Shown piece after piece: positions 34,401-56,991 of a DNA stretch of 64,000 nt. The stretch spans positions 49,648 to 113,647 of the forward strand of contig JACQCF010000014.1 of the NCBI GenBank assembly GCA_016201795.1, written 5' to 3'. The notes beneath the pieces were generated by a model that was not told the origin of the DNA, ran no database searches, and was given only the letters and a program-made list of their open reading frames with translations. A program made the translations under genes and the position numbers. Positions within the stretch are counted from its first letter, which is position 1; every line of letters starts with the position of its first letter. Source of the stretch: Candidatus Omnitrophota bacterium (GTDB lineage: Bacteria; Omnitrophota; Gorgyraeia; Zapsychrales; Fredricksoniimonadaceae).

Positions 34401-35603
34401 ATGTTGTTTAAGAGGAAATGGAAGATTTTTTTAGTGTTGGGAATGGTGACAGGGGTAGCCGTTGCTGGCGCATTTGCTCAAACAGCTGATCACGTTTTAT
34501 CCAATGAAGAACTTTCCCAGCAAGTCCGTGAACTTCAAAAACAGTTGCGGAATATGCAACAGGTGATTCAGAAACAAAATGAGATTATTGAAAAATTAAG
34601 TCATCAGCCTGTGGAAGCCCAACCCTCGATACAACAGATAGCCGAGGTCAAGGAGCAGCTTAAACAGGAAATCAAAGCGGATATCAAAAAGGATGAACCG
34701 TCCTTTCTGCGGGTTGGTAAAGGGAATGTTGATTTAAGTTTGCTTGTTCAGGAATGGTATGTGGTTGACGATCATGCTCATGATAATTTCCGTCATCGTC
34801 GCTTGGAATTGGGAGTGGGGGGAAATCTTATTGATCATTTGAAATGGAAACTTGTGACTGATCCAAGTCTGGTTCAGGAAGATAACACCACCCGTAGTAT
34901 TTTAAAAGATGCTTACGTCGGTTACGATGGTATCCCACATCATACGATCCAAATGGGGCAGTATAAAATTCCGGTTACAGAAGAAGGGTTTCGTTCATCG
35001 GCCAAAATTGATACCGCGGAACGCTCTTTTATTGGACGGACTTATGGTGATAAACGTGATATTGGTGTCATGGCATCAGGCAATTGGAAATATGCCGATT
35101 ACCAGCTGGGAGTTTTTAACGGTGAAGGGCCCAATAAAAGCGATACCAATGACCACAAAGACATTGCGGGAAGGTTTGTTCTAAAACTTTTCCCGGATAA
35201 TAACTTCTGGAAAGGTTTACAAGTGGGCAGCTCTTTTTACGAACGGCCTTCACATGTAACTTCACCTGTTAAAAAGCGTATTGGGGCAGAGGCGAGATTT
35301 GAATATGACAAATTTTCACTCAAAAGTGAATTCATGAAAGCCCAAGATGGAGCCATACCATCGAATGGATGGTACACGCAGTTGGGGTATTTTATTGCCC
35401 CTAAATGGCAGCTGATTGCTAAGTATGAAGGATTTGACCCCAACGAACAGGCCTCAGGAGATCAAGAATTTGATACGACTATTGGTCTTAATTATTTCTT
35501 GATTAATCCAACGACTAAATTGCAACTTAATTATGTGCATAAAACAGTCCGTGGCGGTGCCGATGATAATCAGATTATTACTGCGGCGCAATATGCCTTT
35601 TAA
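34401..35603 (+). CDS. Phosphate-selective porin (OprO/OprP-like) outer-membrane protein
   Basis: Signal peptide. N-terminal coiled-coil. Beta-barrel with a C-terminal aromatic residue (AQYAF). It lies directly upstream of pstSCAB. Confidence 0.6.
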   Translation: MLFKRKWKIFLVLGMVTGVAVAGAFAQTADHVLSNEELSQQVRELQKQLRNMQQVIQKQNEIIEKLSHQPVEAQPSIQQIAEVKEQLKQEIKADIKKDEPSFLRVGKGNVDLSLLVQEWYVVDDHAHDNFRHRRLELGVGGNLIDHLKWKLVTDPSLVQEDNTTRSILKDAYVGYDGIPHHTIQMGQYKIPVTEEGFRSSAKIDTAERSFIGRTYGDKRDIGVMASGNWKYADYQLGVFNGEGPNKSDTNDHKDIAGRFVLKLFPDNNFWKGLQVGSSFYERPSHVTSPVKKRIGAEARFEYDKFSLKSEFMKAQDGAIPSNGWYTQLGYFIAPKWQLIAKYEGFDPNEQASGDQEFDTTIGLNYFLINPTTKLQLNYVHKTVRGGADDNQIITAAQYAF

Positions 35604-37376: not shown

Positions 37377-38224
37377 TTAAAAATCCTTATTTAAAAGAAA
37401 AGATTGCCTTTACCCTTTTATTCGGCGCCACGGTTCTGGTGGTGTTACCGGTTATTTTTGTTCTTTTCTATATCGTCAAACAAGGATGGCCAGCCATTAA
37501 CTGGGAATTTTTGACTCAGATGCCGCAAAAAGGCATGCGTGCCGGCGGCATTTTCCCGGCGATTATCGGGACTTTATATTTAGTTTTAGGAACGCTTTTG
37601 TTCGCCTTACCGCTGGGGGTGCTCTCAGGCGTTTATTTAACCGAATATGCCAGAGATAATGGACTCACACGGTTAGTGAAGCTGGCAATTATCAATTTGG
37701 CTGGCGTGCCGTCGGTGGTGTACGGGCTTTTCGGGTTGGGAATTTTTGTGGTTTTTCTTAAATTCGGGGCATCCATTCTTGCCGGGTCTCTCACCCTGGC
37801 GATTATGGTTTTGCCCATTATTATTACCACCACCCGCGAGGCTTTAGATAGCGTGCCGCAGTCCTTCCGTCAGGTCAGTTTGTCGTTGGGGGTTTCTAAA
37901 TGGCAGACGATTCGCCACGTGGTGTTGCCGCATGCGATGCCAGGGATTCTAACCGGTATGATTTTGGCAGTTTCGCGCGCGGCCGGAGAAACAGCGCCGA
38001 TCCTTTTTACTGTAGCCGCGTTTTATTTGCCCAGGCTGCCTAAGTCTGTTTTTGATCAGGTCATGGCATTGCCATATCATTTGTACGTGATTTCAACTCA
38101 GGTGCCCCATGTGAAATTGGAGATTCGTTATGGGACGGCGCTGGTATTGCTCATCATTGTTTTATCTTTGAATCTGGTGGCGATCATCGTGCGGGCCCAA
38201 TTCCGTAAGAAGAAAAAATGGTAG
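37373..38224 (+). CDS. pstA: Phosphate ABC transporter permease
   Basis: 6-TM ABC permease. Its stop and start overlap the neighbouring genes. Confidence 0.85.
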   Translation: MIKNPYLKEKIAFTLLFGATVLVVLPVIFVLFYIVKQGWPAINWEFLTQMPQKGMRAGGIFPAIIGTLYLVLGTLLFALPLGVLSGVYLTEYARDNGLTRLVKLAIINLAGVPSVVYGLFGLGIFVVFLKFGASILAGSLTLAIMVLPIIITTTREALDSVPQSFRQVSLSLGVSKWQTIRHVVLPHAMPGILTGMILAVSRAAGETAPILFTVAAFYLPRLPKSVFDQVMALPYHLYVISTQVPHVKLEIRYGTALVLLIIVLSLNLVAIIVRAQFRKKKKW

Positions 38225-38979
38225 ACTCTTGTATTAAAATTACCATCGTGGATTTAAGTGCGTCATACGGTGCCGTTTGCGCCCTCAAGTCTCTTTCTCT
38301 GGATGTGAGGGAGGGGGAAATTTTAAGTGTGATAGGTCCTTCCAACAGCGGTAAAACCACATTTTTGCGCTGCCTGAACCGTTTTAACGACACAAACCCG
38401 CATTTTTCCCATCGGGGAATGGTGACTATCAACGGTATTGATATTTATGGTAATATTGATGTCGAGATGTTGCGTAAAAAAGTAGGGATGGTTTTCGCGT
38501 TGCCTACGGTTTTACCGATGAGTGTTTGGGAGAATGCGGCCTATGGCCTGCGCCGCCATGGCATCAGGGATGAACGGATGATTGCTTTGAGCGTTGAGAA
38601 TTCTTTGAGAGCGGCTTATTTGTGGGATGAGGTCAAGGATCGTTTGGAGGCGGCGGCTTTGAATCTTTCCGGCGGGCAGCAGCAGCGCTTGTGTCTGGCC
38701 AGGACATTGGCGGTGGAACCGGATATTATTCTTTATGACGAGCCGTGTTCGGGGCTTGATCCTATTTCCACCGCTAAAATCGAGGAGGCCATGATTCATT
38801 TTAAGGACAAGTACACCCAGATTTTGGTTACCAACAATACCAAACAAGCGGCGCGGGTCGGAAATCGGACGGCGTTTTTTTTGATGGGCCAGATGGTTGA
38901 GCTTGACGCGACGAATAAAATTTTTACCTCTCCATCGGATCAACGGACGGAAGATTATATTTCCGGGAGATTCGGTTAA
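38218..38979 (+). CDS. pstB: Phosphate ABC transporter ATP-binding protein
   Basis: Walker A (GPSNSGKTT), LSGGQQQRLCLAR and DEP. Confidence 0.85.
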   Translation: MVDSCIKITIVDLSASYGAVCALKSLSLDVREGEILSVIGPSNSGKTTFLRCLNRFNDTNPHFSHRGMVTINGIDIYGNIDVEMLRKKVGMVFALPTVLPMSVWENAAYGLRRHGIRDERMIALSVENSLRAAYLWDEVKDRLEAAALNLSGGQQQRLCLARTLAVEPDIILYDEPCSGLDPISTAKIEEAMIHFKDKYTQILVTNNTKQAARVGNRTAFFLMGQMVELDATNKIFTSPSDQRTEDYISGRFG

Positions 38980-39734
38980 TGCATACGATGATCGAAACTC
39001 ATCAGTTAAATTTTTTTTACGGGTCGTTTCACGGATTGATTGATATTAACCTGGCGGTTGCCCAGTACCAGATCACAGCGTTGATTGGTCCTTCCGGATG
39101 CGGGAAATCCACGCTGTTGCGGACGTTTAACCGGATGAACGATTTAATCGAAAATGTACGGGTGACGGGAAGGGTGTTTATCGACGGGGTGGATATTTAC
39201 ACTCCACAAACGGATTTGGTGAATCTGCGTAAAAAAGTGGGTATGGTATTTCAGCGGCCTAATCCGTTTGCTCTTTCTGTAGCTGAAAATATTTTATTTA
39301 GTGTTAAAATTCATAAGACCGCTCCGGCATCGCAGTATGAAGCGATTTTGGAAGAATCATTGCGGGCGGTGGATTTGTGGGAGGCGCTCAAGGACAAGCT
39401 CCATAGGTCGGCGTTGCAACTTTCTCTGGAGCAGCAGCAAAGGTTGTGCATCGCGCGGCTGTTGCCGGTTAAGCCCGATATTCTGCTCATGGATGAGCCG
39501 TGTTCGGCCCTGGATCCGATGTCGACGGCCCACATCGAAGAATTGATGCGTATGCTTAAAGTCAATTACACCATTTTGATTGTGACCCATAATATGCAGC
39601 AGGCGGCGCGGGTATCGGATTTTGCGGCTTTTTTGTATCTGGGAGAACTTATTGAATTCGGCAGCACGGAGAAAATGTTCACCGTGCCTAAAGACCGTCG
39701 GACAGAAGAATATTTAACCGGGAAATTCGGTTAA
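38979..39734 (+). CDS. pstB: Phosphate ABC transporter ATP-binding protein, second paralogue
   Basis: Walker A (GPSGCGKST). It has a degenerate signature (LSLEQQQRLCIAR) in place of LSGGQ. Confidence 0.8.
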   Translation: MHTMIETHQLNFFYGSFHGLIDINLAVAQYQITALIGPSGCGKSTLLRTFNRMNDLIENVRVTGRVFIDGVDIYTPQTDLVNLRKKVGMVFQRPNPFALSVAENILFSVKIHKTAPASQYEAILEESLRAVDLWEALKDKLHRSALQLSLEQQQRLCIARLLPVKPDILLMDEPCSALDPMSTAHIEELMRMLKVNYTILIVTHNMQQAARVSDFAAFLYLGELIEFGSTEKMFTVPKDRRTEEYLTGKFG

Positions 39735-41766: not shown

Positions 41767-41870
41767 ATTCCCTCCCCCTTGTGGGGAGGGTTAGGGTGGG
41801 GGGGAAAAAAAGAAGCGATGATTCCTTTTAATCCCCCTCCCCTTACCCCCTCCCACCAAGGGAGGGGAAC
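41767..41870. repeat. Solo copy of the DUF559-associated palindromic element (no endonuclease ORF)
   Basis: attccctcccccttgtggggagggttagggtggggggg, a core, then atccccctccccttaccccctcccaccaagggaggggaac. It has the same architecture as 29961-30063. Confidence 0.6.
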
Positions 41871-43664: not shown

Positions 43665-43713
43665 AAAATCCCGCCCCGTCCCGCATTTGCGGGACGGGGC
43701 GGGATTTTTGTTT
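43665..43713 (+). terminator. Rho-independent terminator
   Basis: Perfect 16-bp G/C-rich stem (aaaatcccgccccgtcccgc attt gcgggacggggcgggatttt) followed by a T-run. Confidence 0.85.
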
Positions 43714-43839
43714 ATAGACCTCATTTAAGATTTTTCACTTTCTATTTTGTATTTCATTTTTCTTTGTTAATATAAATACGCTATTCCTTAATAGATTGCG
43801 TTATTTATTTTGATAGAAAGTGTTAGGTTAAGAGCAGTT

Positions 43840-44415
43840 ATGACCCGGGATGAAATATACGAGCACCTGGCCAAGGTTTACCTTGGCAAGCGTGAAAACG
43901 CCGCCCAACGAAAAAAGAAAAGAACCTTAAACCAGTCATGGCTGGTCATCAATATCGTGATTACAGCCGTGATTCTGATCTCGACGGTGTATGGGTTTAC
44001 GGCTTTTTTAACCCGCCGGGTAGTTTTGCAAAATCAGGTCTTCTATGCTTTAAATAATAATCCGATTCGTATCGCTTACGATCTCAATGATCCTTTTCCG
44101 TCGACCAAAACATTTTCGATTACCATCCCTCGCAAGGACGCATCCAAATACAGCCGTTTGAATTTGACCATTCGCGGCATGAACGCGGCTTATCCGGGGA
44201 TTGTGAAAATGATTGTCGGTAATCAACGCAATGAAAAGGCTACTTATTTTATTCAGAATGTGCAGAGCCATTGGCAAAAGGTCAGTGTTCCTCTGGAGAA
44301 ATTGAATTTGACGGACTGGACAACGGTGACTGATGTTTCTTTTATGCTGGAAGCCTGGAATGTGGATTTTAAAAAAGGTGCGGTGCTTATTGATGATATA
44401 TCGTTTTCAAATTAG
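43840..44415 (+). CDS. Membrane-anchored hypothetical protein with extracytoplasmic beta-sandwich (CBM/jelly-roll-like) domain
   Basis: Basic cytoplasmic N-terminus, a single TM, and a C-terminal region with the W/V/F pattern of a beta-sandwich (WQKVSVPL...VSFMLEAWNVDFKKGAVLIDDISF). Confidence 0.4.
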   Translation: MTRDEIYEHLAKVYLGKRENAAQRKKKRTLNQSWLVINIVITAVILISTVYGFTAFLTRRVVLQNQVFYALNNNPIRIAYDLNDPFPSTKTFSITIPRKDASKYSRLNLTIRGMNAAYPGIVKMIVGNQRNEKATYFIQNVQSHWQKVSVPLEKLNLTDWTTVTDVSFMLEAWNVDFKKGAVLIDDISFSN

Positions 44416-44457
44416 TAGGGGCGGGGTGACCCCGTCCCCTACAGCGCAAGGGGGTTT

Positions 44458-45591
44458 ATGAAAACTATTTCCATAGCCAATCAAAAAGGCGGGTGCGGCA
44501 AAACAACCACAGCCATTAACCTTGCTTCGAGTCTTGGCTTTATGGGCAAGAAAACCCTTTTGATTGATCTGGATCCTCAAGCCCATGCCACCCTCGGGCT
44601 TAATATCAACGACAGCTATAGCCTTTACAATGTCATTTCCAAATTAACCCCCCATAAATTAAAAATTAAGGAAATCATCAAGAGCGTGAGTAAGAATTTC
44701 GATATTGTACCCTCTAACGTTCTGTTGGGGACTTTGGAGCAGGAGTTGACGGATGAAATCGGCCGTGAATTGAAATTAGTTGAGATTTTAGTGGAGGTCA
44801 AAGGGGAGTACGATTATATTCTCATTGATTGCCCGCCGAGCCTCGGTTTTTTAACCGTTAATGCCCTGCGCGCCAGCGATCAGGTGATGATACCGGTGGA
44901 AACCAGCCGTTTTTCCATGCAGGGGGTGGATCATTTAACGGATATCATCAATCTTATCCGTGACCGTCTCAATCATCCGGTGCAGGAAAGAATTCTCATT
45001 ACCATGTTTGATTCCCGCCTGCGTCATTCTTTTGCCATGTTCTCCAAAATGAAAGAGAAGTTCGGCAAACTCCTCTATGATACGATCGTACATATTAATG
45101 TGAAACTTAAAGAATCAGCGGTGATGGGGGAGGCGGTTTTAAAATACGATAAATACTGCCGTGGCTCCAAGGATTATTTGAGTTTAGCCCGTGAGATTCT
45201 TTTGCTGGATCGGCTGCCTTCTTTGGGGGTGGTCTCTGAGACGACTCTAAAGACAGCTGAAGGAACCGATCAGACCTATAAGCCTTCCCAACGTATGCAG
45301 GATTTGGTTGTTAAAAAGACTTCGGAATTTGTGGGATCGGCCGCTTTTTCTTTGAAAGCGCCGCAAGCAGCCTTGGTGTATGTTACGGGATCTTTTAATG
45401 ACTGGTCTTTGGATGAAAAATGCCGCATGTCCAATAAGGACGGGCTCTGGACGCTTCGCCTGCCGCTGGCGGCTGGTGTTTACAAATATCAGTTTATCGT
45501 CGATGGTAAATGGCAGGAAGATCCCGAGAATAAAAATACCGAACGCAATTCTTTTGGAGATATCAATTCGCTTATCGAGGTCAAAGGCTGA
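44458..45591 (+). CDS. ParA/MinD-family ATPase fused to a C-terminal AMPK-beta-type glycogen-binding domain (CBM48)
   Basis: Deviant Walker A (NQKGGCGKTTTAINLA), Walker A' (LLIDLDPQ) and Walker B (DYILIDCPP). The C-terminal roughly 85 aa (ALVYVTGSFNDWS...GVYKYQFIVDGKWQEDPEN...NSFGDINSLIEV) fit the AMPK1_CBM/CBM48 consensus. Confidence 0.8.
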   Translation: MKTISIANQKGGCGKTTTAINLASSLGFMGKKTLLIDLDPQAHATLGLNINDSYSLYNVISKLTPHKLKIKEIIKSVSKNFDIVPSNVLLGTLEQELTDEIGRELKLVEILVEVKGEYDYILIDCPPSLGFLTVNALRASDQVMIPVETSRFSMQGVDHLTDIINLIRDRLNHPVQERILITMFDSRLRHSFAMFSKMKEKFGKLLYDTIVHINVKLKESAVMGEAVLKYDKYCRGSKDYLSLAREILLLDRLPSLGVVSETTLKTAEGTDQTYKPSQRMQDLVVKKTSEFVGSAAFSLKAPQAALVYVTGSFNDWSLDEKCRMSNKDGLWTLRLPLAAGVYKYQFIVDGKWQEDPENKNTERNSFGDINSLIEVKG

Positions 45592-45908
45592 TGCCGCAAG
45601 GTTTTTCCAAAAAGGATATTCTGGACGGAAAAATATATGCGCTTTTAGCCTACTTGTCCATCCTTTGTATCATTCCTCTGATTCTTAAAAAAGACAATCC
45701 TTTTGTGCTGGCCCATGGTAAACAGGGTTTGATTCTTTTCATTGTTGAGACGGCTGTCTGGATTTTAAGCATTGTCGTTCCACTCCTCTGGGCGCCTTTG
45801 ATGTTTATTCTGATGACCTTATCTTTTTGGGGATTGATGGCCGTGGTTAAAGGAGAGTTCACTCGTCTGCCGCTGGTGGCCGATTGGGCGGATAAAGTCT
45901 CTTTATGA
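45591..45908 (+). CDS. DUF4870-family small membrane protein
   Basis: YALLAYLSILCIIPLIL...NPFVLAHGKQGLILFI matches the DUF4870 pattern. Its start overlaps the ParA stop. Confidence 0.55.
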   Translation: MPQGFSKKDILDGKIYALLAYLSILCIIPLILKKDNPFVLAHGKQGLILFIVETAVWILSIVVPLLWAPLMFILMTLSFWGLMAVVKGEFTRLPLVADWADKVSL

Positions 45909-45927
45909 AATTTGAGGGTCTTTTGAT

Positions 45928-46383
45928 ATGTCCATCCTTAAGAAATTTTCAGATACCCTTAAAGAGGTTTTCTGGATAAAATCTTCTCGTCAGAAAAAGT
46001 CTTCCCGCCGTCGTAAAGTTTCCGTTAAGAAAACAGTTAAGAAAAATAAACCCACCAAGGTCAAAAAAAGACCTGCGGCCAAACCATTACGTCCAGTTAA
46101 AGCGCTGGCTAAAATAAAAACTGTTCCGTTAGATCCCCATTTAGTGAAGGCCGGTGAAATCACTCATTACTTTGACCGCATTAAGGTGGGGGTGGTCAAA
46201 ATTAGCCGGGGAACCATTTTGATTGGCGATCGATTAACCATCGTTGGTAAAAAGAGCAAATTTGTCCAGAAAGTCTGGTCTATGCAAATTGAAAGCCAGG
46301 ACGTCAAGGTAGCTAAAAAAGGCCAGCTCATCGGCCTTAAAGTGGATAAACCTGCGCAGGCGGGAGATGTTGTTTATAAATAG
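45928..46383 (+). CDS. Protein with highly basic N-terminal tail and C-terminal EF-Tu domain-2-like beta-barrel
   Basis: KKSSRRRKVSVKKTVKKNKPTKVKKRPAAKP tail. The C-terminal segment (KVGVVKISRGTILIGDRLTIVGKK...VKVAKKGQLIGLKV...AGDVV) follows the EF-Tu domain-2 pattern. Confidence 0.45.
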   Translation: MSILKKFSDTLKEVFWIKSSRQKKSSRRRKVSVKKTVKKNKPTKVKKRPAAKPLRPVKALAKIKTVPLDPHLVKAGEITHYFDRIKVGVVKISRGTILIGDRLTIVGKKSKFVQKVWSMQIESQDVKVAKKGQLIGLKVDKPAQAGDVVYK

Positions 46384-46406
46384 AATGTATGGTATATTTA
46401 ACTTAA

Positions 46407-46586
46407 ATGAAAAATAATAAAGGTCAAAATGTGGTGGAGTATATCTTGGTAGCGGTCGCTGTGGTGCTGGTGTGTTTGGTCCTTTTAAATCCGCAGTCAG
46501 GTCCTGTAAAGAAATCCGTAGAAACCACCCTTAACAGCACCGTGGATAGCATCAATAGCATCGCCAACACAATTCAGTTTCAATGA
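46407..46586 (+). CDS. Flp-type (type IVb) pilin-like small protein, 59 aa
   Basis: MKNNKG^QNVVEYILVAVAVVLVCLV fits a G-x4-EY prepilin motif followed by a hydrophobic helix. It is not in the ORF track because it is under 60 aa. Confidence 0.35.
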   Translation: MKNNKGQNVVEYILVAVAVVLVCLVLLNPQSGPVKKSVETTLNSTVDSINSIANTIQFQ

Positions 46587-47005
46587 ACATGAGCGCCAAC
46601 CACAAGGATTTAATCCGCCGCTACTTGCTCTGGGCGTATCAAACCACCAAAGAATCTTTTGAGCGTATTGAGCGTAAAACCACCCAGTTGATGGTGGATG
46701 AATATCTGTTAAAAACTTTAAATCGGATGGCGAAGCCGCCCAAAAGTATTCAAAAGGATTATCAGAAACTCGTCGATGAGTTTAAGCAATATATAGTCAA
46801 CAAAAAACAGGACGAGCTCAAGCAGAAATTTACCGACGAGACAAGCAAGTCTTTTCACCCCCAGTATTTGTATTTAAGAAATCGTCTTGGGGCCATCGAA
46901 GAGGCTGTGAAATATTTTCTCGGTTCCCGCCAGCTTAAAGCGATGAAAGCGCTTTATGAAGAGGAATTCACCCGTCGTATTCTGCAAGCTAGAGAGCATT
47001 CATAA
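46583..47005 (+). CDS. Hypothetical helical protein
   Basis: 140-aa ORF coupled to the flanking genes by overlapping stop and start codons. No recognisable domain. Confidence 0.4.
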   Translation: MNMSANHKDLIRRYLLWAYQTTKESFERIERKTTQLMVDEYLLKTLNRMAKPPKSIQKDYQKLVDEFKQYIVNKKQDELKQKFTDETSKSFHPQYLYLRNRLGAIEEAVKYFLGSRQLKAMKALYEEEFTRRILQAREHS

Positions 47006-47436
47006 TGATGCGTATAGTATTATTTATTATATTATGTTTAGGTTTTGGGGTGCGCGTATCGGATGCCGCCATTGAAATTTATGCGGCCGGTCAGCATTTT
47101 GATTCTTTCGAAGATTATCAGAAAAGCCGACAGAACAATTTAGAGCCCCTCCATGCGCCTTTGATTCCTGGGCAGGTTCGCCAAAAACTGGAGAAGGTCA
47201 GCTATAATGACGGTATTGATCATGTGGTGGTAGATTTTCAGCAAGATTGGCAGAACCCTAAACCCCGATTTATTCTGGATGCGGATGAGCTTGAGCAGGC
47301 CATTCGCGAGACTATGGGCGACCAACAGCAGCCTATGCTTTTAATTTCCGATCCTCAAAAGATGCGTATGATGTCTTATTCCCCCCAAGACAAGTTACCC
47401 TCAGATCAAAATACACAGGATGGACAAAAGCCGTAA
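47005..47436 (+). CDS. Hypothetical secreted protein
   Basis: Signal peptide (IVLFIILCLGFGVRVSDA). It overlaps the stop of the upstream gene. Confidence 0.4.
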   Translation: MMRIVLFIILCLGFGVRVSDAAIEIYAAGQHFDSFEDYQKSRQNNLEPLHAPLIPGQVRQKLEKVSYNDGIDHVVVDFQQDWQNPKPRFILDADELEQAIRETMGDQQQPMLLISDPQKMRMMSYSPQDKLPSDQNTQDGQKP

Positions 47437-47471
47437 AGAATGTAATAATAAAAGCAAAACAGGGAGGATCT

Positions 47472-47645
47472 GTGGCTGAACAGAAGAAAGATGAAAACTG
47501 TTGCAATGGCTGTGCGGGAGTCAAAAAGCTTATCGTGGGGCTCATTTTAGGGGTTTTAATCTTTGTGGCTGGCTACTATTTTGCCAAGGGTCAATGCCCT
47601 TTTAGCCAGAGGGCTATCTGCCCACTCTATCACGCCAATCCTTGA
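47472..47645 (+). CDS. Small Cys-rich membrane protein (about 57 aa, GTG start)
   Basis: GGGAGG ribosome-binding site at 47461-47466. Sequence CCNGCAG...hydrophobic helix...GQCPFSQRAICP. Confidence 0.3.
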   Translation: MAEQKKDENCCNGCAGVKKLIVGLILGVLIFVAGYYFAKGQCPFSQRAICPLYHANP

Positions 47646-47763
47646 AAATGTCCTGTTGATTGAGCGTACAGGACAGTTCTGATAAGAAAATTCCAGAAGG
47701 GGTAAAAATTATTTTTCCCGTCGAAGATGTGTTATACTTTTTTGAAATATTGAAAGGGTTTTG

Positions 47764-49299
47764 ATGCGTGCCGGAGTTATTGATATAGGATCATCTTCGA
47801 CCAAACTGCTCATCGGGGAACGCCATGGCGAAGACATCAAAATCATTGAGTCTCTTAAGAACGCCATTCCACTGGGCCGTCATGCCTTTTTAAAAAGCCG
47901 TATTCCGCAGACCATTATCAACCAAACCGCCTCTGTCTTACAAAAATACAAAGAGACCTTCAAAGAATATGACGTGGCGGATGTCATGGTCATTGCCACC
48001 ACCGCCGTGCGTGAGGCGCGCAACCAGGATATTTTCCTGGATACAGTTTTGCGTAAGACCGGTTTTAAGATTGATGTGCTCAACGCCGGGGATGTGGTTT
48101 ATTACATTGATTATTTTCTTTCTCATAAGCTCAAGAAAACTTATCCGGTGGCGGAAAAGAATCTGTTGATCGCGGAATTGGGAGCGGGAAGCCTGGATAT
48201 GTCCGTGGTGGAAAAAGGTTTAACGCTTATGAATATCGGCTTTCCCATCGGGACCTTACGCCTGTCTCAGTTTATGGAAAATTTAGACGGCTCCATGCAG
48301 GAGGTGCATGAGGCCACCGAAGAATACATTGAGAACGAAATTTTGTTTTTAAAAAAGAACAATCCCGGGCTTGTCATTGACGATATTATTCTCATCGATG
48401 AAAATTATTCGGTATTCATTCAAAACATTCTGCCCAACAAACGCCGTGATTCGGACTTTTTTAAATTCAAAGCCTCCGAGGCACAGGAGTTCTTATCCCG
48501 CCTGCGGCAGATGAACGCCCAGGAAATTGAGCGAACCTACGGGGTCCCTTCCGATATTGCGGCCACCATCGTCGGTTTTGCGATTATTCTTAACACGCTT
48601 TTTAAGCTTAACAAAAACGAGCATGTGTATATTCTGGAGGCTTCTTTGTCGGAGGCGATTTTAGCCAATCAGCTGTTTCGTCTGGAGGCCTCTGAAAAAA
48701 CGGATAAATTAAGCCAGTTGGTTTCCGTGGCGCATTTTCTCTGCCGTAGATACGGCATGGATTTAGATCACCTCAAGCACGTGGCCTTTTTTACCGAGCA
48801 GTTGTTCGAGGCTTTTAAGGACATTTTAGGTTTGAGTTCGCAGGACCGTCTGTATTTGATTTTAGCGGCCTATTTGCATGATCTGGGAATGTTTATCAAT
48901 AACCGTTCGCATCATAAACACAGTGAATATATTATTAGCTCCTCGAATTTGTTCCGTTTAACCGAGGATGAAATTGATATCATTGCCTGTATTGCCCGTT
49001 ATCATCGTCGTTCGGCACCGCTCAAAACCCATCTGGTGTATAATTCGCTTTCTTCGAATCAGCAGATTCTGGTACAAAAATTAAGCGCCCTGCTTCGCAT
49101 TGCCAATGCGCTGGACCGTTCGCATAAACAAAAGGCCAAACGCATTGCGGTCAAATTCAATGAAAGCGGCGATGCGACCATTGTGGTTTTTACGCACGAG
49201 AACTTTTTGCTGGAGAAAGAGAATTTCTTGGAGAAAAAAGAATTGCTTGAGGAGATTACCGGTAATAAATTGACCTTGACGGTCAAGAGTCAGGACTGA
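47764..49299 (+). CDS. ppx: Exopolyphosphatase / guanosine pentaphosphate phosphohydrolase (Ppx/GppA) with C-terminal HD domain
   Basis: AGVIDIGSSSTKLLIGE is a typical Ppx/GppA N-terminus (ASKHA fold). An HD-like region (YLHDLGMFIN...HHKHS) lies near the C-terminus. Confidence 0.85.
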   Translation: MRAGVIDIGSSSTKLLIGERHGEDIKIIESLKNAIPLGRHAFLKSRIPQTIINQTASVLQKYKETFKEYDVADVMVIATTAVREARNQDIFLDTVLRKTGFKIDVLNAGDVVYYIDYFLSHKLKKTYPVAEKNLLIAELGAGSLDMSVVEKGLTLMNIGFPIGTLRLSQFMENLDGSMQEVHEATEEYIENEILFLKKNNPGLVIDDIILIDENYSVFIQNILPNKRRDSDFFKFKASEAQEFLSRLRQMNAQEIERTYGVPSDIAATIVGFAIILNTLFKLNKNEHVYILEASLSEAILANQLFRLEASEKTDKLSQLVSVAHFLCRRYGMDLDHLKHVAFFTEQLFEAFKDILGLSSQDRLYLILAAYLHDLGMFINNRSHHKHSEYIISSSNLFRLTEDEIDIIACIARYHRRSAPLKTHLVYNSLSSNQQILVQKLSALLRIANALDRSHKQKAKRIAVKFNESGDATIVVFTHENFLLEKENFLEKKELLEEITGNKLTLTVKSQD

Positions 49300-49300
49300 C

Positions 49301-51319
49301 ATGGATTTGAAAGATAAATATATTCATCGTGATTTAAGCTGGCTGGGATTCAACCGTCGGGTGTTGGAAGAGGCGGGGGATGGGCATAATCCTTTGCTGG
49401 AGCGGCTGAAATTCTTAAGTATTTTTAGCAGCAATTTGGATGAGTTTTACATGGTGCGCGTGGCCGGGCTTAAAAAGCTTTTGGATTCTGGCTATAATCG
49501 CAAAGATCAATTCGGTTTTTATCCCCAGGATCTCTTTAGCGAGATTAAATTAACAGCGGACAGTTTAGTCAAAGACCTTTACGATATTTATGCCGGCTCC
49601 ATCAAGACGACGCTGGAGGCCAATAAGATTTATTTAAAAACTCTCGAGGATTTAAACGAAGCTCAGAAAAAATTCGTTAAACGTTTTTTTGACACGACGC
49701 TGTATCCGATTATCACGCCCATGGCCGTGGACCAGGGGCATCCTTTTCCTGACCTTCCCTCCAAAACTATTGCGCTGGCGGTCTCGATCATTCGTTCGGA
49801 GAAAAATCACCTGGCGATTCTTCCTGTACCTAAATCCGTGCCTCGCCTGTTGAAACTTCCCTCGGAAGGGGAGGAGTTTCATTTCATCCTTATTGACCAT
49901 TTGATTAAGGAAAATCTCAAAGAGTTCTTTAAAGGCTATAAAATTCAGGCCGCTTCGGCCTTTCGTCTGTTGCGCGACAGCGAGATCGCCTTTGATGAGG
50001 AATTTGCCCCCAATTTGCTCAAAGCCATGGAAAAAGAATTACAAAAGCGCACCAGCGCCAGGACGGTGTATGTGCAGATGGAGCAGGGAGCAAACGTAGA
50101 ACTGGTTGATATTTTATGCACCGGTCTTAGTTTTGCTAAAGAAGAAGCGGTCTTTGTCCCTTCGGATTTGGATTTGACTTTTTTTTCTGAAATGGCCAAC
50201 AGCATTGACCGGCCGGGCGTTCGTTTTGGCAGTTTTGTGCCGGCCAAGATTTCTTATGAAAATATTTTTGATAAGATTAAAGAAGAAGACTTTATCGTTC
50301 ATCTGCCTTTTCAGTCATTTTTTCCGACGGAAGATTTGATTCAGACGGCGGCCAAGGATGCGGATGTGTTGGCCATTAAAATGACACTTTATCGTACCAA
50401 TGAAGATTCAAGTATCATTAAGGCACTGATGGAAGCGGCCAAGCGCCGCAAGCAGGTCACCGTGGTGGTTGAAATCAAAGCGCGGTTTGAAGAAGAAAAG
50501 AATATTCAATGGGCTAGGGATCTGGAACAGGCGGGCTGCCATGTCATTTATGGCATTGCGGGTCTGAAAATTCACTCGAAAATGACCTTGATTGTGCGTC
50601 GGGAAGAGGGGCGCATCCGCCGCTATGTGCATTTGTCCACCGGCAATTACAATGAAAAAACCGCGTGTCTTTATACGGACATCGGCTATTTTACGGCCAA
50701 CGATGATTTTGCCCGCGACATTGCCGACGTTTTTAACGTTGTCACGGGTTATTCCCAGCCCAGCCCTTGGAAGAGGGTTATTTCCTCGCCCCATGATTTG
50801 CGTAAGTATTTTTTTGATTTGATCGACCGCGAAATTGAACATCACGGGGCGCATAAGAATGGGCTCATCATCGCCAAGATGAATTCTTTAGAAGATGTGG
50901 CGATGATTGATAAGCTCTATGCCGCTTCCCAGGCGGGGGTTAAGATCAAACTCATTGTGCGTGGCATGTGCTGTTTGATTCCCGGCCTGGAGGGTTTAAG
51001 TGAAAATATCGAGGTCAGAAGCATCATAGGACAGTTTTTGGAGCATTCACGGATTTTTGTTTTTAACAATAATAGCTCCCCCAGAATTTTTCTATCCTCG
51101 GCAGACTGGATGACGCGGAATTTCGATCGACGGGTGGAATTGTTGTTTGAAATCACCAAGCCTGAGATTAAAACTCATTTGCAGTTTGTGATGGATAATT
51201 ATTTCAAAGACAGCCTCAAGGCGCGTGTGCTTCAAAAAGATAAGACCTATGTCCGTCTGGCCCGGGATGAAGTATCCTTCGGGGCGCAGGAGTATTTTAT
51301 CAACCATTATACGAGATAA
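49301..51319 (+). CDS. ppk: Polyphosphate kinase 1
   Basis: RDLSWLGFNRRVLEEA N-terminus, followed by PLD-like HKD modules (IHSKMTLIVR, HSRIFVF). Confidence 0.95.
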   Translation: MDLKDKYIHRDLSWLGFNRRVLEEAGDGHNPLLERLKFLSIFSSNLDEFYMVRVAGLKKLLDSGYNRKDQFGFYPQDLFSEIKLTADSLVKDLYDIYAGSIKTTLEANKIYLKTLEDLNEAQKKFVKRFFDTTLYPIITPMAVDQGHPFPDLPSKTIALAVSIIRSEKNHLAILPVPKSVPRLLKLPSEGEEFHFILIDHLIKENLKEFFKGYKIQAASAFRLLRDSEIAFDEEFAPNLLKAMEKELQKRTSARTVYVQMEQGANVELVDILCTGLSFAKEEAVFVPSDLDLTFFSEMANSIDRPGVRFGSFVPAKISYENIFDKIKEEDFIVHLPFQSFFPTEDLIQTAAKDADVLAIKMTLYRTNEDSSIIKALMEAAKRRKQVTVVVEIKARFEEEKNIQWARDLEQAGCHVIYGIAGLKIHSKMTLIVRREEGRIRRYVHLSTGNYNEKTACLYTDIGYFTANDDFARDIADVFNVVTGYSQPSPWKRVISSPHDLRKYFFDLIDREIEHHGAHKNGLIIAKMNSLEDVAMIDKLYAASQAGVKIKLIVRGMCCLIPGLEGLSENIEVRSIIGQFLEHSRIFVFNNNSSPRIFLSSADWMTRNFDRRVELLFEITKPEIKTHLQFVMDNYFKDSLKARVLQKDKTYVRLARDEVSFGAQEYFINHYTR

Positions 51320-54220: not shown

Positions 54221-54525
54221 TTATGAAAGACAAAGTCATTGAAACAGCAGGGAAAACATGGAGGTTTTTGGGTCAAAACGGCGAGACTAACGTCGCTTGG
54301 CTTCCCAAAATACTTAAAGAAAAAGAGCCGGTGGTGTTTCAAGCGTTAGGATGGCTGGCCCGCGAGGATAAGATCAATTACACGATCAAAAACCGCCGCA
54401 ACTTTGTGTCTTTGGTTGAAGCTGAACTGCAGGCTTTCAACAGCTATATGTATCACATGAATTCTCAAGTTCACAATAGTGCAGTGTCTTCTTCTACCAA
54501 CAGCCGCCACAGAGCTAAGAGATGA
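54217..54525 (+). CDS. Small hypothetical protein (possible winged-helix fold)
   Basis: 102-aa ORF coupled between glgB and the GH57 gene. No confident domain call. Confidence 0.35.
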   Translation: MIMKDKVIETAGKTWRFLGQNGETNVAWLPKILKEKEPVVFQALGWLAREDKINYTIKNRRNFVSLVEAELQAFNSYMYHMNSQVHNSAVSSSTNSRHRAKR

Positions 54526-56990
54526 ATCGTTTTGTCTGTATCCATGGCCATTTTTACCAACCGCCCAGAGAAAATCCCTGGCTGGATGAGGTGGAGCTGC
54601 AGGATCCTGCTTATCCTTATCACGATTGGAATGAACGCATTAGCGCGGAGTGTTACGCACGCAATGCTTCCTCGCGTATCCTCGATGGTAACCATAAGAT
54701 TGTTGATATCGTCAATAATTATTCCAGGATGAGTTTCAACTTCGGTCCGACCCTCTTATCCTGGCTGGAGCAAAAAGCACCGGACGTCTATGCGGCTATT
54801 CTGGAAGCCGACCATCTGAGCCAGAAGAATTTTAGCGGCCATGGCAGCGCTTTAGCTCAAGGTTACAATCATATCATTATGCCTCTGGCCAATACCCGCG
54901 ATAAACGAACCCAGATCCTTTGGGGTATTAAGGATTTTGAGTATCGTTTTAGACGCAAGCCCGAAGGTATGTGGCTGGCCGAGACCGCCGTGGATTTGGA
55001 AACGCTGGATATCATGGCCGAGTACGGCATTAAATTTACCATCTTAGCCCCGCATCAGGCCAAAGAAGTCAAACCGACCAATCAAGAGACGCTCTGGCGT
55101 GATGTGCAGGGCCAAAAGGTGGACCCGAGGGTAGCGTATGTGTGTTATTTGCCTTCGGGACGTAAAATGAATATCTTTTTCTACAACGGACCTGTGGCTC
55201 AGGGGGTGGCCTTTGAAGGCCTTTTGAATAACGGCGAATATTTTGCCAGACGCTTAAGCCGTGAATTTAATACCCACCACACGCAAGCACAGCTGGTGCA
55301 TATCGCCACCGATGGGGAAACTTACGGCCATCATCATAAATTCGGTGATATGGCCTTAGCCTACTGCCTGCATCACATCCAGACGCATCATCTGGCCCAA
55401 CTGACGGTCTACGGCGAGTTTTTAGAAAAATTCCCGCCGCAGGTTGAAGTCACAATCGTGGAAAATTCTTCGTGGAGCTGCGTGCACGGCGTGGAACGCT
55501 GGCGGTCCAATTGCGGCTGTTCGAGCGGAGGACACGCCGGATGGACGCAAGAATGGCGCGGCCCGCTTCGCCAGGCGTTGGACTGGCTGCGCGATGAACT
55601 TATTAAGGTTTATGAGCAACATATCGGTTCATTTAACACTGACGGGTGGGCTCTGCGCGATTGTTATATTGAATTGATTTTGGACCGCAGTCAAGAGAAC
55701 GTGGAGCAGTTTATTAAAAATTATATTTCTGGGCCGCTCAATGAAGAGAGCCGTATAAAACTGTTAAAACTTTTGGAAATGCAGCATAACGCGCTTTTGA
55801 TGTATACCTCCTGCGGTTGGTTTTTTAATGAGATCTCTGGTCTTGAAACCGTGCAGATTCTTAAATACGCTGCCCGCGCCATTCAGCTGGCCCGCGAAGC
55901 CGCCGGCCCCGCCGATGGCAAGGCAGGGGCGGATTTAGAAGGAGGGTTTGTCAAACTTCTGGAGCGGGCCGCCAGCAATGTGGCAGAGTTTAAAAACGGA
56001 GCCAACATTTATTTGAACGTCGTTAAACCTTTGGTGGTGGATCTTTTGCGCGTGGGGGCGCATTATGCGGTCAGCTCTTTATTTGAACAATATCCTTCCA
56101 AGGTGCAGATGTACTGTTATACGGTTCAAAGCGAACATTATGAACTCAAAGAGGCTGGTCGTTTGCGTTTGGCCGTGGGGTATGGATGGGTTCATTCCAA
56201 TATTACCGTCGAGAAAGCCCATATTCGTTTCGCGGTTTTGCATTTAGGGGACCATAATTTTATCGGCGGGGTGGATTATCTCAAAGGCGATGAGTTTGAT
56301 GAAATGTACCAACGGATCATGGCGGCTTTTTTGGAGAGCAATGTGCCCCAGGTGATCGGTTTAATCAATTTCTATTTTGGTTCACGCAATTATTCCCTGT
56401 GGGATTTGTTCAAGCGGGAACAGCAGGCCATCCTCAATCATGTTCTGCGTTCGACCATGCAGGATATAGAAACTTCGTTCCGTCAAATTTACGAGAATCA
56501 CTACCCTTTAATGCAGATCAAAAACGATATTCGTCTGCCCTTGCCGCGCATGCTCATGACGGTGGTGGAATTTATTGTCAATAGGGATTTGGTGGCCTTG
56601 ATCGAAGGGGATGATCTGGATATTGATCGGATGAAGGTGCTGGTGGAGGAGATGAAACGATGGGCGTTTAAGCGCGATCAGGCCAATTTTAGTTTTTTAG
56701 CCAGCGGGCATTTGAATCAGCTCATGCAGAAGCTGCAGGAGCGTCCGGATGATATTGTGCTCATGGAAAAGATCACCACCGCTTTTGAATTATTGGGCCA
56801 GTTGAATCTGGATTTGGATTTATGGAAAGCCCAGAATATTTATTTTGCCATGGCCCGCAGGATTTATCCGGATACCTTCAGTCAATCCAAACACGATGAC
56901 CTTGCCCGACGATGGGTGACGTTGTTTGAGCATTTGGGCGACATCCTTCAGGTGAATATCACGGCCCCTGCCTTGGCGGGGATTCAATAA
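54522..56990 (+). CDS. Glycoside hydrolase family 57 enzyme with DUF3536-like C-terminal region
   Basis: N-terminal GH57 signature (CIHGHFYQPPRENPW...NFGPTLLSWLE...ATDGETYGHH). Confidence 0.85.
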   Translation: MNRFVCIHGHFYQPPRENPWLDEVELQDPAYPYHDWNERISAECYARNASSRILDGNHKIVDIVNNYSRMSFNFGPTLLSWLEQKAPDVYAAILEADHLSQKNFSGHGSALAQGYNHIIMPLANTRDKRTQILWGIKDFEYRFRRKPEGMWLAETAVDLETLDIMAEYGIKFTILAPHQAKEVKPTNQETLWRDVQGQKVDPRVAYVCYLPSGRKMNIFFYNGPVAQGVAFEGLLNNGEYFARRLSREFNTHHTQAQLVHIATDGETYGHHHKFGDMALAYCLHHIQTHHLAQLTVYGEFLEKFPPQVEVTIVENSSWSCVHGVERWRSNCGCSSGGHAGWTQEWRGPLRQALDWLRDELIKVYEQHIGSFNTDGWALRDCYIELILDRSQENVEQFIKNYISGPLNEESRIKLLKLLEMQHNALLMYTSCGWFFNEISGLETVQILKYAARAIQLAREAAGPADGKAGADLEGGFVKLLERAASNVAEFKNGANIYLNVVKPLVVDLLRVGAHYAVSSLFEQYPSKVQMYCYTVQSEHYELKEAGRLRLAVGYGWVHSNITVEKAHIRFAVLHLGDHNFIGGVDYLKGDEFDEMYQRIMAAFLESNVPQVIGLINFYFGSRNYSLWDLFKREQQAILNHVLRSTMQDIETSFRQIYENHYPLMQIKNDIRLPLPRMLMTVVEFIVNRDLVALIEGDDLDIDRMKVLVEEMKRWAFKRDQANFSFLASGHLNQLMQKLQERPDDIVLMEKITTAFELLGQLNLDLDLWKAQNIYFAMARRIYPDTFSQSKHDDLARRWVTLFEHLGDILQVNITAPALAGIQ

Positions 56991-56991
56991 T

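Follow-up and report, generated by a model that had tools for sequence, protein, structure and literature searches.

An orphan ParA ATPase fused to a predicted glycogen-binding CBM48 module and its conserved gene neighbors in Omnitrophota

Within a 64,000-nucleotide stretch of a Candidatus Omnitrophota genome (contig JACQCF010000014.1, positions 49,648 to 113,647, forward strand; here called the window), we analyzed a cluster of eight genes, A to H, that surrounds a gene (B) for a ParA-type ATPase carrying a CBM48 carbohydrate-binding module (ParA-CBM48). We found that the cluster is not one eight-gene unit. It consists of a four-gene core, A-B-C-D, in fixed order, of a periphery formed by E and F in one subclade and by G in closer relatives, and of the local genes H, ppx and ppk. 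The core is a dedicated module, inherited vertically, with an orphan Soj-type ATPase at its center. An earlier interpretation made from the letters of the window alone (the sequence-only reading) had proposed the neighbors of ParA-CBM48 as candidate partner components. This held for A, C and D, which are kept down to approximately 47% ParA identity, and in part for E and F, and was left unsupported for G and H, as was the further step from D as a dedicated neighbor to D as a stimulator of the ATPase by way of its basic tail.

We scanned one genome per species and retained 34 full-length ParA-CBM48 loci, together with 46 loci of plain ParA/Soj proteins as controls. The ATPase domain of the window protein matched AAA_31 with an E value of 2.4e-56 (190.9 bits, cut-off 27) and CbiA with 57.1 bits in Pfam, and its best match in the PDB was 8RAY (1e-51), the chromosomal ParA of M. 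xanthus (PMC12462528), followed by Soj proteins. It harbors the deviant Walker A motif KGGCGKTT at residues 10 to 17, including the signature lysine, and residues K10, K15, D37, D39, D124 and R187 were invariant in all 34 loci, which come from several phyla. R187 corresponds to the DNA-contact position R189 of Soj, and the basic positions K216/K218 were also seen. Given the signature-lysine motif, the profile matches and the Walker B and catalytic aspartates, all of which are present, we assign B to the ParA/MinD superfamily.

The C terminus of B matched AMPK1_CBM (E value of 1.5e-15; 57.6 bits, cut-off 26.8) and CBM_48 (23.8 bits, cut-off 22.4). Upon alignment with the carbohydrate-binding module of AMPK beta, residues W316, K343, W352 and N370 fell on the W/K/W/N sugar-contact positions, which we take to be W100, K126, W133 and N150 of AMPK beta1. 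Both tryptophans were invariant across phyla (34/34), while K343 is replaced in some loci by R, Q, E, H or Y, and N370 by D. The domains on either side of the linker are each about 75 to 80% identical among orthologues. B ends with the CBM48, without a C-terminal amphipathic membrane-targeting helix, and its Walker A motif begins at residue 10, leaving no N-terminal receiver-like domain. Furthermore, a parB gene (GERRxRA box, LGRGL N terminus) adjoined none of the 34 ParA-CBM48 loci, compared to 40 of the 46 plain ParA loci. We therefore describe B as an orphan (that is, without an adjoining parB) Soj-type ParA, joined by a flexible linker to a predicted glycogen-binding CBM48. The window copy is 100% identical to a protein at NCBI from a metagenome-assembled genome of Omnitrophota.

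To score the neighbors of these loci, we used tblastn and iterated hidden Markov models (HMMs). Nineteen of the 34 loci belong to Omnitrophota, with a ParA identity of 47 to 78%. Gene A was found directly upstream of B in all 19 and in four distant loci as well (L022, L023, L025 and L027, approximately 41% identity), which makes 23 loci by HMM. Gene C followed B in 14 of the 19 Omnitrophota loci and in most of the metagenome loci described below, and a complete downstream copy of D was present in 15 of the 19. As for the others, D is partial at a contig end in L004, the contigs of L016 and L019 stop before the position of D, and L007 is without D. None of the 46 control loci contained A, C or D, and the three genes remain adjacent to B while all surrounding genes change; this is the outcome of the co-conservation analysis that the sequence-only reading had called for. 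E and F were each recovered in just five genome loci, all of them with a ParA that shares at least about 54% identity with that of the window. G was limited to three genome loci (ParA 73 to 78% identical) and seven metagenome loci, and homologues of H were seen only in L001 and L002, the same two loci in which ppx and ppk adjoin the cluster.

The reverse search started from the barrel of D. Its profile led to 80 metagenome loci, and a tail-bearing D was counted as testable when at least 1.6 kb of upstream sequence was available. Tail-bearing D lay just downstream of ParA-CBM48 in all 14 testable loci, whereas barrel-only relatives were beside it in 0 of 34. Because of this, we conclude that D is a dedicated component of the module and not a ribosomal or nucleoid protein of the ubiquitous kind, the outcome by which the sequence-only reading would have been refuted. 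In the metagenome loci, D was followed by E in 18 cases and F was present in 13. Ten tailed D members were looked up; three carried an organism name, all of them Omnitrophota. Stand-alone barrel proteins of the D family, 83 to 98 residues long, are common outside the module (metagenome loci L101 and L105-L163). An attempt to read the function of the barrel from the surroundings of these tail-less relatives was abandoned, as their neighbors are lineage-specific housekeeping genes (aconitase-like, SDR, methylmalonyl-CoA mutase, fmt) with no common theme.

D itself is composed of a short N-terminal helix, a disordered polybasic tail and a C-terminal barrel (Table 1), in good agreement with its first description as a Lys/Arg tail fused to a barrel like domain 2 of EF-Tu. 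The AlphaFold2 (AF2) model shows a beta-barrel and not a coiled coil. In Foldseek, the barrel matched 4he5, the C-terminal domain of a U32 peptidase (E value of 1e-4, TMt 0.84), and then domain 2 of IF2 and EF-Tu; the match to GTP_EFTU_D2 in Pfam reached 21.7 bits, below the cut-off of 30.3. A word-indexed search gave only close relatives of D, and an exhaustive search of representatives was used instead, which returned 1629 representative clusters at an E value of 1e-3 or lower. The combination of helix, K/R tail and C-terminal barrel was found in 135 of the best 148. From these 135 tail-bearing clusters, we derived the helix consensus M-[SAP]-[ILF]-[LFI]-[KD]-[KR]-[LIF]-[LIF]-x-[SA]-[LFI]-[KR]-[KR]-[ILF]-[FL]. 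The tail of relatives is 53 to 217 residues long and always contains 30 to 50% K+R, with a net charge of approximately +0.32 per residue.

The other two members of the core are predicted membrane proteins. A has a cytoplasmic N-terminal helix (residues 3 to 16, motif EIYxHLAxxYL), a K/R patch, one transmembrane (TM) helix at approximately residues 30 to 64 and a sandwich at residues 76 to 190; the AF2 model likewise gave the N-terminal helix, a disordered basic patch, the TM helix and an eight-strand sandwich. The charge distribution predicts a type II membrane protein, with the N terminus inside and the sandwich outside the cell, and the jelly roll matched the fold of carbohydrate-binding modules of the galactose-binding-like type. 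These results agree with the original view of A as a membrane-anchored protein with an extracytoplasmic, carbohydrate-binding-like beta-sandwich. The only invariant residues of A outside the sandwich, L10 and A11, sit in the cytoplasmic helix, together with Y14, which is kept in at least 90% of the sequences. This helix is not amphipathic (moment of 0.20), and the position matching the key R/K of ParB is variable. C has at least two hydrophobic segments, as a small polytopic membrane protein would. Its window copy matched DUF4870 weakly (E value of 0.054, 13.9 bits, cut-off 25), and 7 of 17 orthologues did so with an E value of 0.01 or lower (best, 8.8e-5); precomputed PF09685 matches also exist for C.

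Outside the regular core, several arrangements deserve mention. In one subclade of Omnitrophota, a gene of about 165 codons separates D from ParA-CBM48 (or from C) (L010:3654-4154, L014:3776-4270, L015:11111-11605 and L018 at approximately 3360-3870), and its product looks nitroreductase-like by eye (RRSIR...PTARNIQPW). In the most distant clade (32% identity), a gene divergent from ParA-CBM48 encodes a TM-anchored protein (L053:2313-3188 and L057:8772-9614, both on the minus strand) that matched Mann_GBD_bact and CBM27 above the Pfam cut-offs. We rejected the A-like proteins of L034 and L053 as homologues of A and counted them as architectural analogues only, since hhalign gave no match for L034 and a probability of 43% for L053. 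In a clade outside Omnitrophota, the downstream gene (L026:3339-4277, L030:11089-11949) codes for a further P-loop protein, ParA/CbiA-like, whose N terminus carries the ParB-like motif LGRGL (RKLGRGLSDVSHIFLSG) and which might be another sort of ATPase partner. Its counterpart at L024:3018-4451 had no Pfam match and no LGRGL motif in the part read.

Genes for glycogen and phosphate metabolism surround the module. In the window, the order between positions 34401 and 58488 is phosphate porin, pstS-C-A-B-B, phoU, a Nuo51-like gene, an Alginate_exp porin gene, the module, ppx, ppk1, a ROK kinase gene, glgB, a GH57+DUF3536 gene and GH77. The glgB, GH57, GH77 and ROK kinase genes lie 4 to 11 kb downstream of ParA-CBM48. 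Additionally, a distant ParA-CBM48 (37% identity) at L031:2978-6966 (minus strand) is convergent with, and abuts, genes for a GH77 4-alpha-glucanotransferase and a GH57 protein, which are 48 to 49% identical to the window copies at 54522-58488. We take L031 as independent support for a link of ParA-CBM48 with glycogen. Upstream, pst-phoU genes also occur in L001-L003 and L083, and the phosphate link is confined to close relatives, while the Alginate_exp porin gene precedes the module in 12 of the 19 loci. Membership of the cluster in a polyphosphate operon was considered and set aside, as ppx and ppk adjoin in two loci only and pst-phoU in the four just named; we keep it only as a minor rival. 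The window has two tandem pstB-like ABC ATPase genes (38218-38979 and 38979-39734) after pstC and pstA, where one is usual. The listed GTG start of the ROK kinase gene overlaps the end of ppk1 by 95 nucleotides (51225-51319), and its true start probably lies further downstream.

We tentatively propose that ParA-CBM48 dimers in the ATP-bound state hold glycogen over the nucleoid, that D regulates or tethers them and that A and C provide a link to the membrane; we infer every step of this scheme from sequence and gene context. The dimers would bind a surface, most likely the nucleoid because the DNA-contact arginine position of Soj (R187) is invariant. The two CBM48 modules of each dimer would hold alpha-glucan (glycogen) particles directly, so that the cargo adaptor would be built into the ATPase. 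D would act as the cytoplasmic partner, its N-terminal helix and basic tail contacting the ATPase and/or a polyanionic surface, and this contact would set ATP turnover and release, comparable to the action of McdB, ParB and MinE on their own ATPases. Anchorage of the system at the inner membrane would come from A, by way of its conserved cytoplasmic helix, and from C. In this way, storage polysaccharide would be spaced or partitioned in an ATP-dependent manner inside very small cells. By analogy, the tail of D may plausibly activate the ATPase, as had been suggested initially: the gene lies downstream of that for the ATPase, the region is N-terminal and basic, and it includes a conserved amphipathic helix of the ParB-type kind. 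In ParB, the motif that binds ParA is a short helix that has a hydrophobic face and a single R/K at its center (PMC12462528).

Several observations weigh against this proposal. The neighborhood of glycogen genes was seen only in the window and in L031, the flank covered in close relatives ending at the ROK gene. The distant ParA-CBM48 clades (L020-L031) lack D, as does L007, while an A-type protein persists in distant clades, and the Omnitrophota subclade L010-L017 is without the amphipathic helix of D. Two membrane proteins are more than the scheme requires, yet no partner is conserved as deeply as A, and the jelly roll of A faces away from the cytoplasm and therefore could not touch cytoplasmic glycogen. 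Finally, the tail of D is much longer and more highly charged than the known activating peptides of the ParB/MinE type, and by analogy it looks more like the histone-H1-like tethers AlgP, PhaF and PhaM than like such a short peptide.

With its invariant residues outside the sandwich confined to the cytoplasmic helix, A is a serious rival to D as the contact of the ATPase. If A were the primary contact, its helix would recruit ParA-CBM48 to the inner membrane, and the module would organize an envelope structure or a periplasmic glycan-related complex that would involve the CBM-like domain of A, the Alginate_exp porin, the Flp-like E and the exported proteins G and H, with the CBM48 serving as sensor or anchor, in a manner that would resemble how BcsQ, TadZ/CpaE, FlhG and ParC place envelope machines. 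The depth to which A is conserved speaks for such an arrangement, as do the TM-anchored, galactose-binding-like protein (Mann_GBD_bact/CBM27) beside ParA-CBM48 in L053 and L057, the porin gene upstream of most Omnitrophota loci, the Flp-type prepilin encoded by E and the fact that five of the eight cluster proteins are membrane-bound or exported. However, a strong terminator separates the porin gene from A, profile scans of the cluster gave no gene for a synthase, a secretin, a Tad ATPase or a platform protein, and the L053 and L034 proteins are not clearly homologous to A. The ATPase, moreover, is closest to the DNA-binding Soj and not to BcsQ, TadZ or MinD, and is without a membrane-targeting helix, and the helix of A is neither amphipathic nor conserved at the ParB key position. 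We consider this arrangement unlikely. Somewhat less probable, in our judgment, is that D is a polyanion tether and not an activator, its tail binding nucleoid DNA or polyphosphate and its barrel docking on ParA-CBM48 or a granule protein, which would link glycogen and/or polyphosphate granules to the nucleoid. The composition and length of the tail speak for such a role, tethers with K-rich histone-like tails are known for polyhydroxybutyrate (PHB) and polyphosphate granules (PMC13052382), and the window cluster sits between pstSCAB-phoU and ppx-ppk1, with pst-phoU upstream in four other loci. Against this, ppx and ppk adjoin only in the closest relatives, and the tail of D is N-terminal and stands behind a conserved amphipathic helix, unlike in AlgP and PhaF. 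The roles of tether and activator are in any case compatible.

We also weighed whether ParA-CBM48 might simply be the chromosome-partition ParA of Omnitrophota, equipped with an accessory domain and surrounded by unrelated neighbors that lineage synteny holds in place. Over the aligned length, its ATPase domain and chromosomal ParA share about 45% identity, the identity within the clade is of the level seen for a housekeeping gene, and the pattern of E to H, ppx and ppk is indeed one of synteny restricted to a lineage. This is nevertheless improbable, since the near-constant ParB neighbor of the controls is missing from all 34 loci, A, C and D stay together while their surroundings change, tailed D occurs only beside ParA-CBM48 in the testable loci, and the start codon of C overlaps the stop codon of ParA-CBM48.

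We then compared the module with known systems. It resembles McdA/McdB in that an orphan ParA-type ATPase without ParB is followed by a small downstream partner gene whose product has a basic disordered N-terminal region, and in that a cytoplasmic inclusion would be the cargo and the nucleoid the matrix. Unlike in McdA/McdB, the CBM48 cargo module is fused to the ATPase, two membrane proteins belong to the core and there are no carboxysome genes; in addition, the deviant Walker A motif of B retains its signature lysine, and D has a predicted beta-barrel instead of the coiled-coil/condensate architecture of McdB. In sequence, the ATPase is closest to ParA/Soj of the ParABS systems (8RAY, 6IUB and 1WCV), with the catalytic motifs and R187 kept, but it differs from them by the missing parB, by the additional linker and CBM48 and by its partners A, C and D; a ParB-like LGRGL N terminus was seen on a downstream protein only in a different clade (L026 and L030). 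The CBM48 of B is similar to those of AMPK beta, SEX4 and GlgB, with profile matches above the cut-offs, two platform tryptophans kept and the Lys/Asn contact positions retained. However, this module, whose binding is predicted from sequence, is located on a P-loop positioning ATPase and not on a kinase scaffold, a phosphatase or a glycoside hydrolase.

D shares with AlgP, PhaF and PhaM a long, K-rich disordered tail and a genomic link to storage-polymer genes, but its tail is N-terminal behind an amphipathic helix, its globular part is a barrel of the EF-Tu domain 2 type and it is associated with an ATPase. The N terminus of D (e.g., MPLLDYLFKTLKKLF in relatives) resembles the amphipathic membrane-targeting helix of MinE, with basic residues next to it. 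In contrast, B lacks the C-terminal membrane-targeting helix of MinD and is not MinD-like in sequence, and D does not have the MinE fold. Lastly, the presence of a ParA-family ATPase gene beside a gene for a Flp-type prepilin-like protein, membrane proteins and a porin of the polysaccharide-export type recalls TadZ/CpaE and BcsQ. Nevertheless, B is without the receiver-like N-terminal domain of TadZ, the cluster contains no tad or bcs genes and the sequence is far closer to Soj.

All eight open reading frames (ORFs) were confirmed by the ORF map on the plus strand and at the positions named beforehand (Table 1). Gaps between them do not exceed 42 nucleotides, and there are three overlaps, namely B/C by 1 nucleotide (TGATG), E/F by 4 nucleotides and F/G by 1 nucleotide. 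The description of a run of tightly packed ORFs, bounded by a strong terminator and by ppx, with the ATG of C overlapping the ParA stop, was thus accurate, and the domain calls for the cluster members agreed with the profile, AF2 and Foldseek results. The start of A is the ATG at 43840, as in the orthologues; a TTG at 43810 only extends the ORF. The 9-mer GGGACGGGG is common to the upstream terminator and to a hairpin that lies between A and B, and it occurs in three copies in the 64 kb, compared to 0.45 expected. The two could represent a small repeated palindromic element, or the hairpin could serve in processing or stability within the operon; it cannot be kept in L001, where the gap between A and B is only 20 nucleotides. 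An Rfam scan found no RNA family inside 43.8-47.7 kb. Further upstream, between the Nuo51-like and Alginate_exp porin genes, an imperfect G/C-rich hairpin of about 100 nucleotides lies at 41768-41870 (minimum free energy of -59.9 kcal/mol, z -3.3), and its sub-threshold matches to microRNA-precursor models arise merely because it is a long hairpin. An origin of the cluster as a defense system or from a phage was rejected, as PADLOC gave only sub-threshold noise and the surroundings are housekeeping genes.

Table 1. Positions in the window of the cluster genes, their parts and flanking elements
Feature	Position	Strand	Description
Intrinsic terminator	43665-43708	+	20-bp stem with 14 G-C pairs, 4-nt loop, T run; closes the Alginate_exp porin gene; upstream edge of the cluster
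Gene A, 191 aa	43840-44415	+	Cytoplasmic helix, K/R patch, TM helix, CBM-like jelly roll (predicted)
A-B hairpin, 12 bp	44415-44442	+	G+C-rich, no T run; fold -25 kcal/mol, z -3.3; GGGGCGGGGTGACCCCGTCCCC
Gene B, ParA-CBM48	44458-45591	+	AAA_31 + AMPK1_CBM
B, ATPase domain, aa 1-250	44458-45207	+	Soj-type deviant Walker A ATPase
B, linker, aa ~251-295	45208-45342	+	Variable, low complexity; length and sequence differ among orthologues
B, CBM48/AMPK-beta-type module, aa 296-377 + stop	45343-45591	+	AMPK1_CBM profile
Gene C, 105 aa	45591-45908	+	DUF4870/MamF-MmsF-like; start codon overlaps B stop
Gene D	45928-46383	+	Helix + K/R tail + beta-barrel
D, N-terminal amphipathic helix, aa 1-18	45928-45981	+	MSILKKFSDTLKEVFWIK; AF2 helix aa 3-14; hydrophobic moment 0.67
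D, polybasic disordered tail, aa 19-73	45982-46146	+	21 K+R and 1 D+E in 55 residues; pLDDT <50
D, C-terminal beta-barrel, aa 74-151 + stop	46147-46383	+	EF-Tu domain 2/U32-peptidase C-terminal type; pLDDT ~90
Gene E, 59 aa	46407-46586	+	Flp-type prepilin-like; class III signal peptide
Gene F, 140 aa	46583-47005	+	Cytoplasmic; no Pfam/NCBIfam match above cut-off
Gene G, 143 aa	47005-47436	+	Exported; N-terminal signal/anchor segment; no family
Gene H, 57 aa	47472-47645	+	Cys-rich single-TM mini-protein; 5 Cys
ppx	47761-49299	+	Downstream flank, then ppk1

The remaining cluster genes encode small proteins. E, initially described as a Flp-pilin-like ORF, indeed has a class III signal peptide, MKNNKG/QNVVEY (motif G-Q-x3-E-Y), and a TM segment at residues 9 to 27. 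Among its orthologues, Q7 and E11 are invariant, Y12 is kept in at least 90% and G6 is near-invariant (A in 2 of 17); 13 of the 17 matched Class_IIIsignal and 5 matched Flp_Fap, to which the window copy scored 15.2 bits, below the cut-off of 32.2. No tad machinery genes were found within about 10 kb on either side of the cluster. For F and G, no Pfam or NCBIfam family scored above its cut-off; G carries a hydrophobic segment at residues 4 to 22. The label of Cys-rich mini-protein given to H fits its five cysteines and single TM segment.

ATPases of the ParA/MinD type are known to place chromosomes, plasmids, carboxysomes, chemoreceptor arrays, flagella and division sites. The module described here is a variation on this theme and not a separate category: its ATPase is orthodox, and the fused cargo module and the set of partners are new. 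In the literature, searches that combined ParA with CBM48 or glycogen, or Omnitrophota with ParA, yielded no account of the protein or of the module. In a 2025 review of bacterial organelle positioning, no ParA-type system is given for PHB or polyphosphate granules and glycogen is unmentioned (PMC13052382). One account describes glycogen condensates in E. coli that push the nucleoid aside and skew division (PMC12706056), and a ParA that handles glycogen would therefore have a clear cellular rationale. Whether ParA-CBM48, A, C and D form the first ATP-driven system for positioning or partitioning a storage polymer, with glycogen moved over the nucleoid, D as a new class of ATPase partner, A coupling the system to the envelope and polyphosphate granules perhaps as a second cargo, is a larger claim that we regard as doubtful at present. 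Since the parts are small and soluble or single-pass, the module should be readily testable in vitro. It would offer a naturally occurring case in which the cargo adaptor is part of the ATPase, a new and very large family of partners in the form of D, with the helix, K/R tail and barrel shared by hundreds of clusters, and an obligatory tie to a membrane protein whose carbohydrate-binding fold faces outward. If our proposal is true, ultra-small Omnitrophota cells would partition a storage polymer by means of a ParA that carries its own glycogen-binding adaptor.

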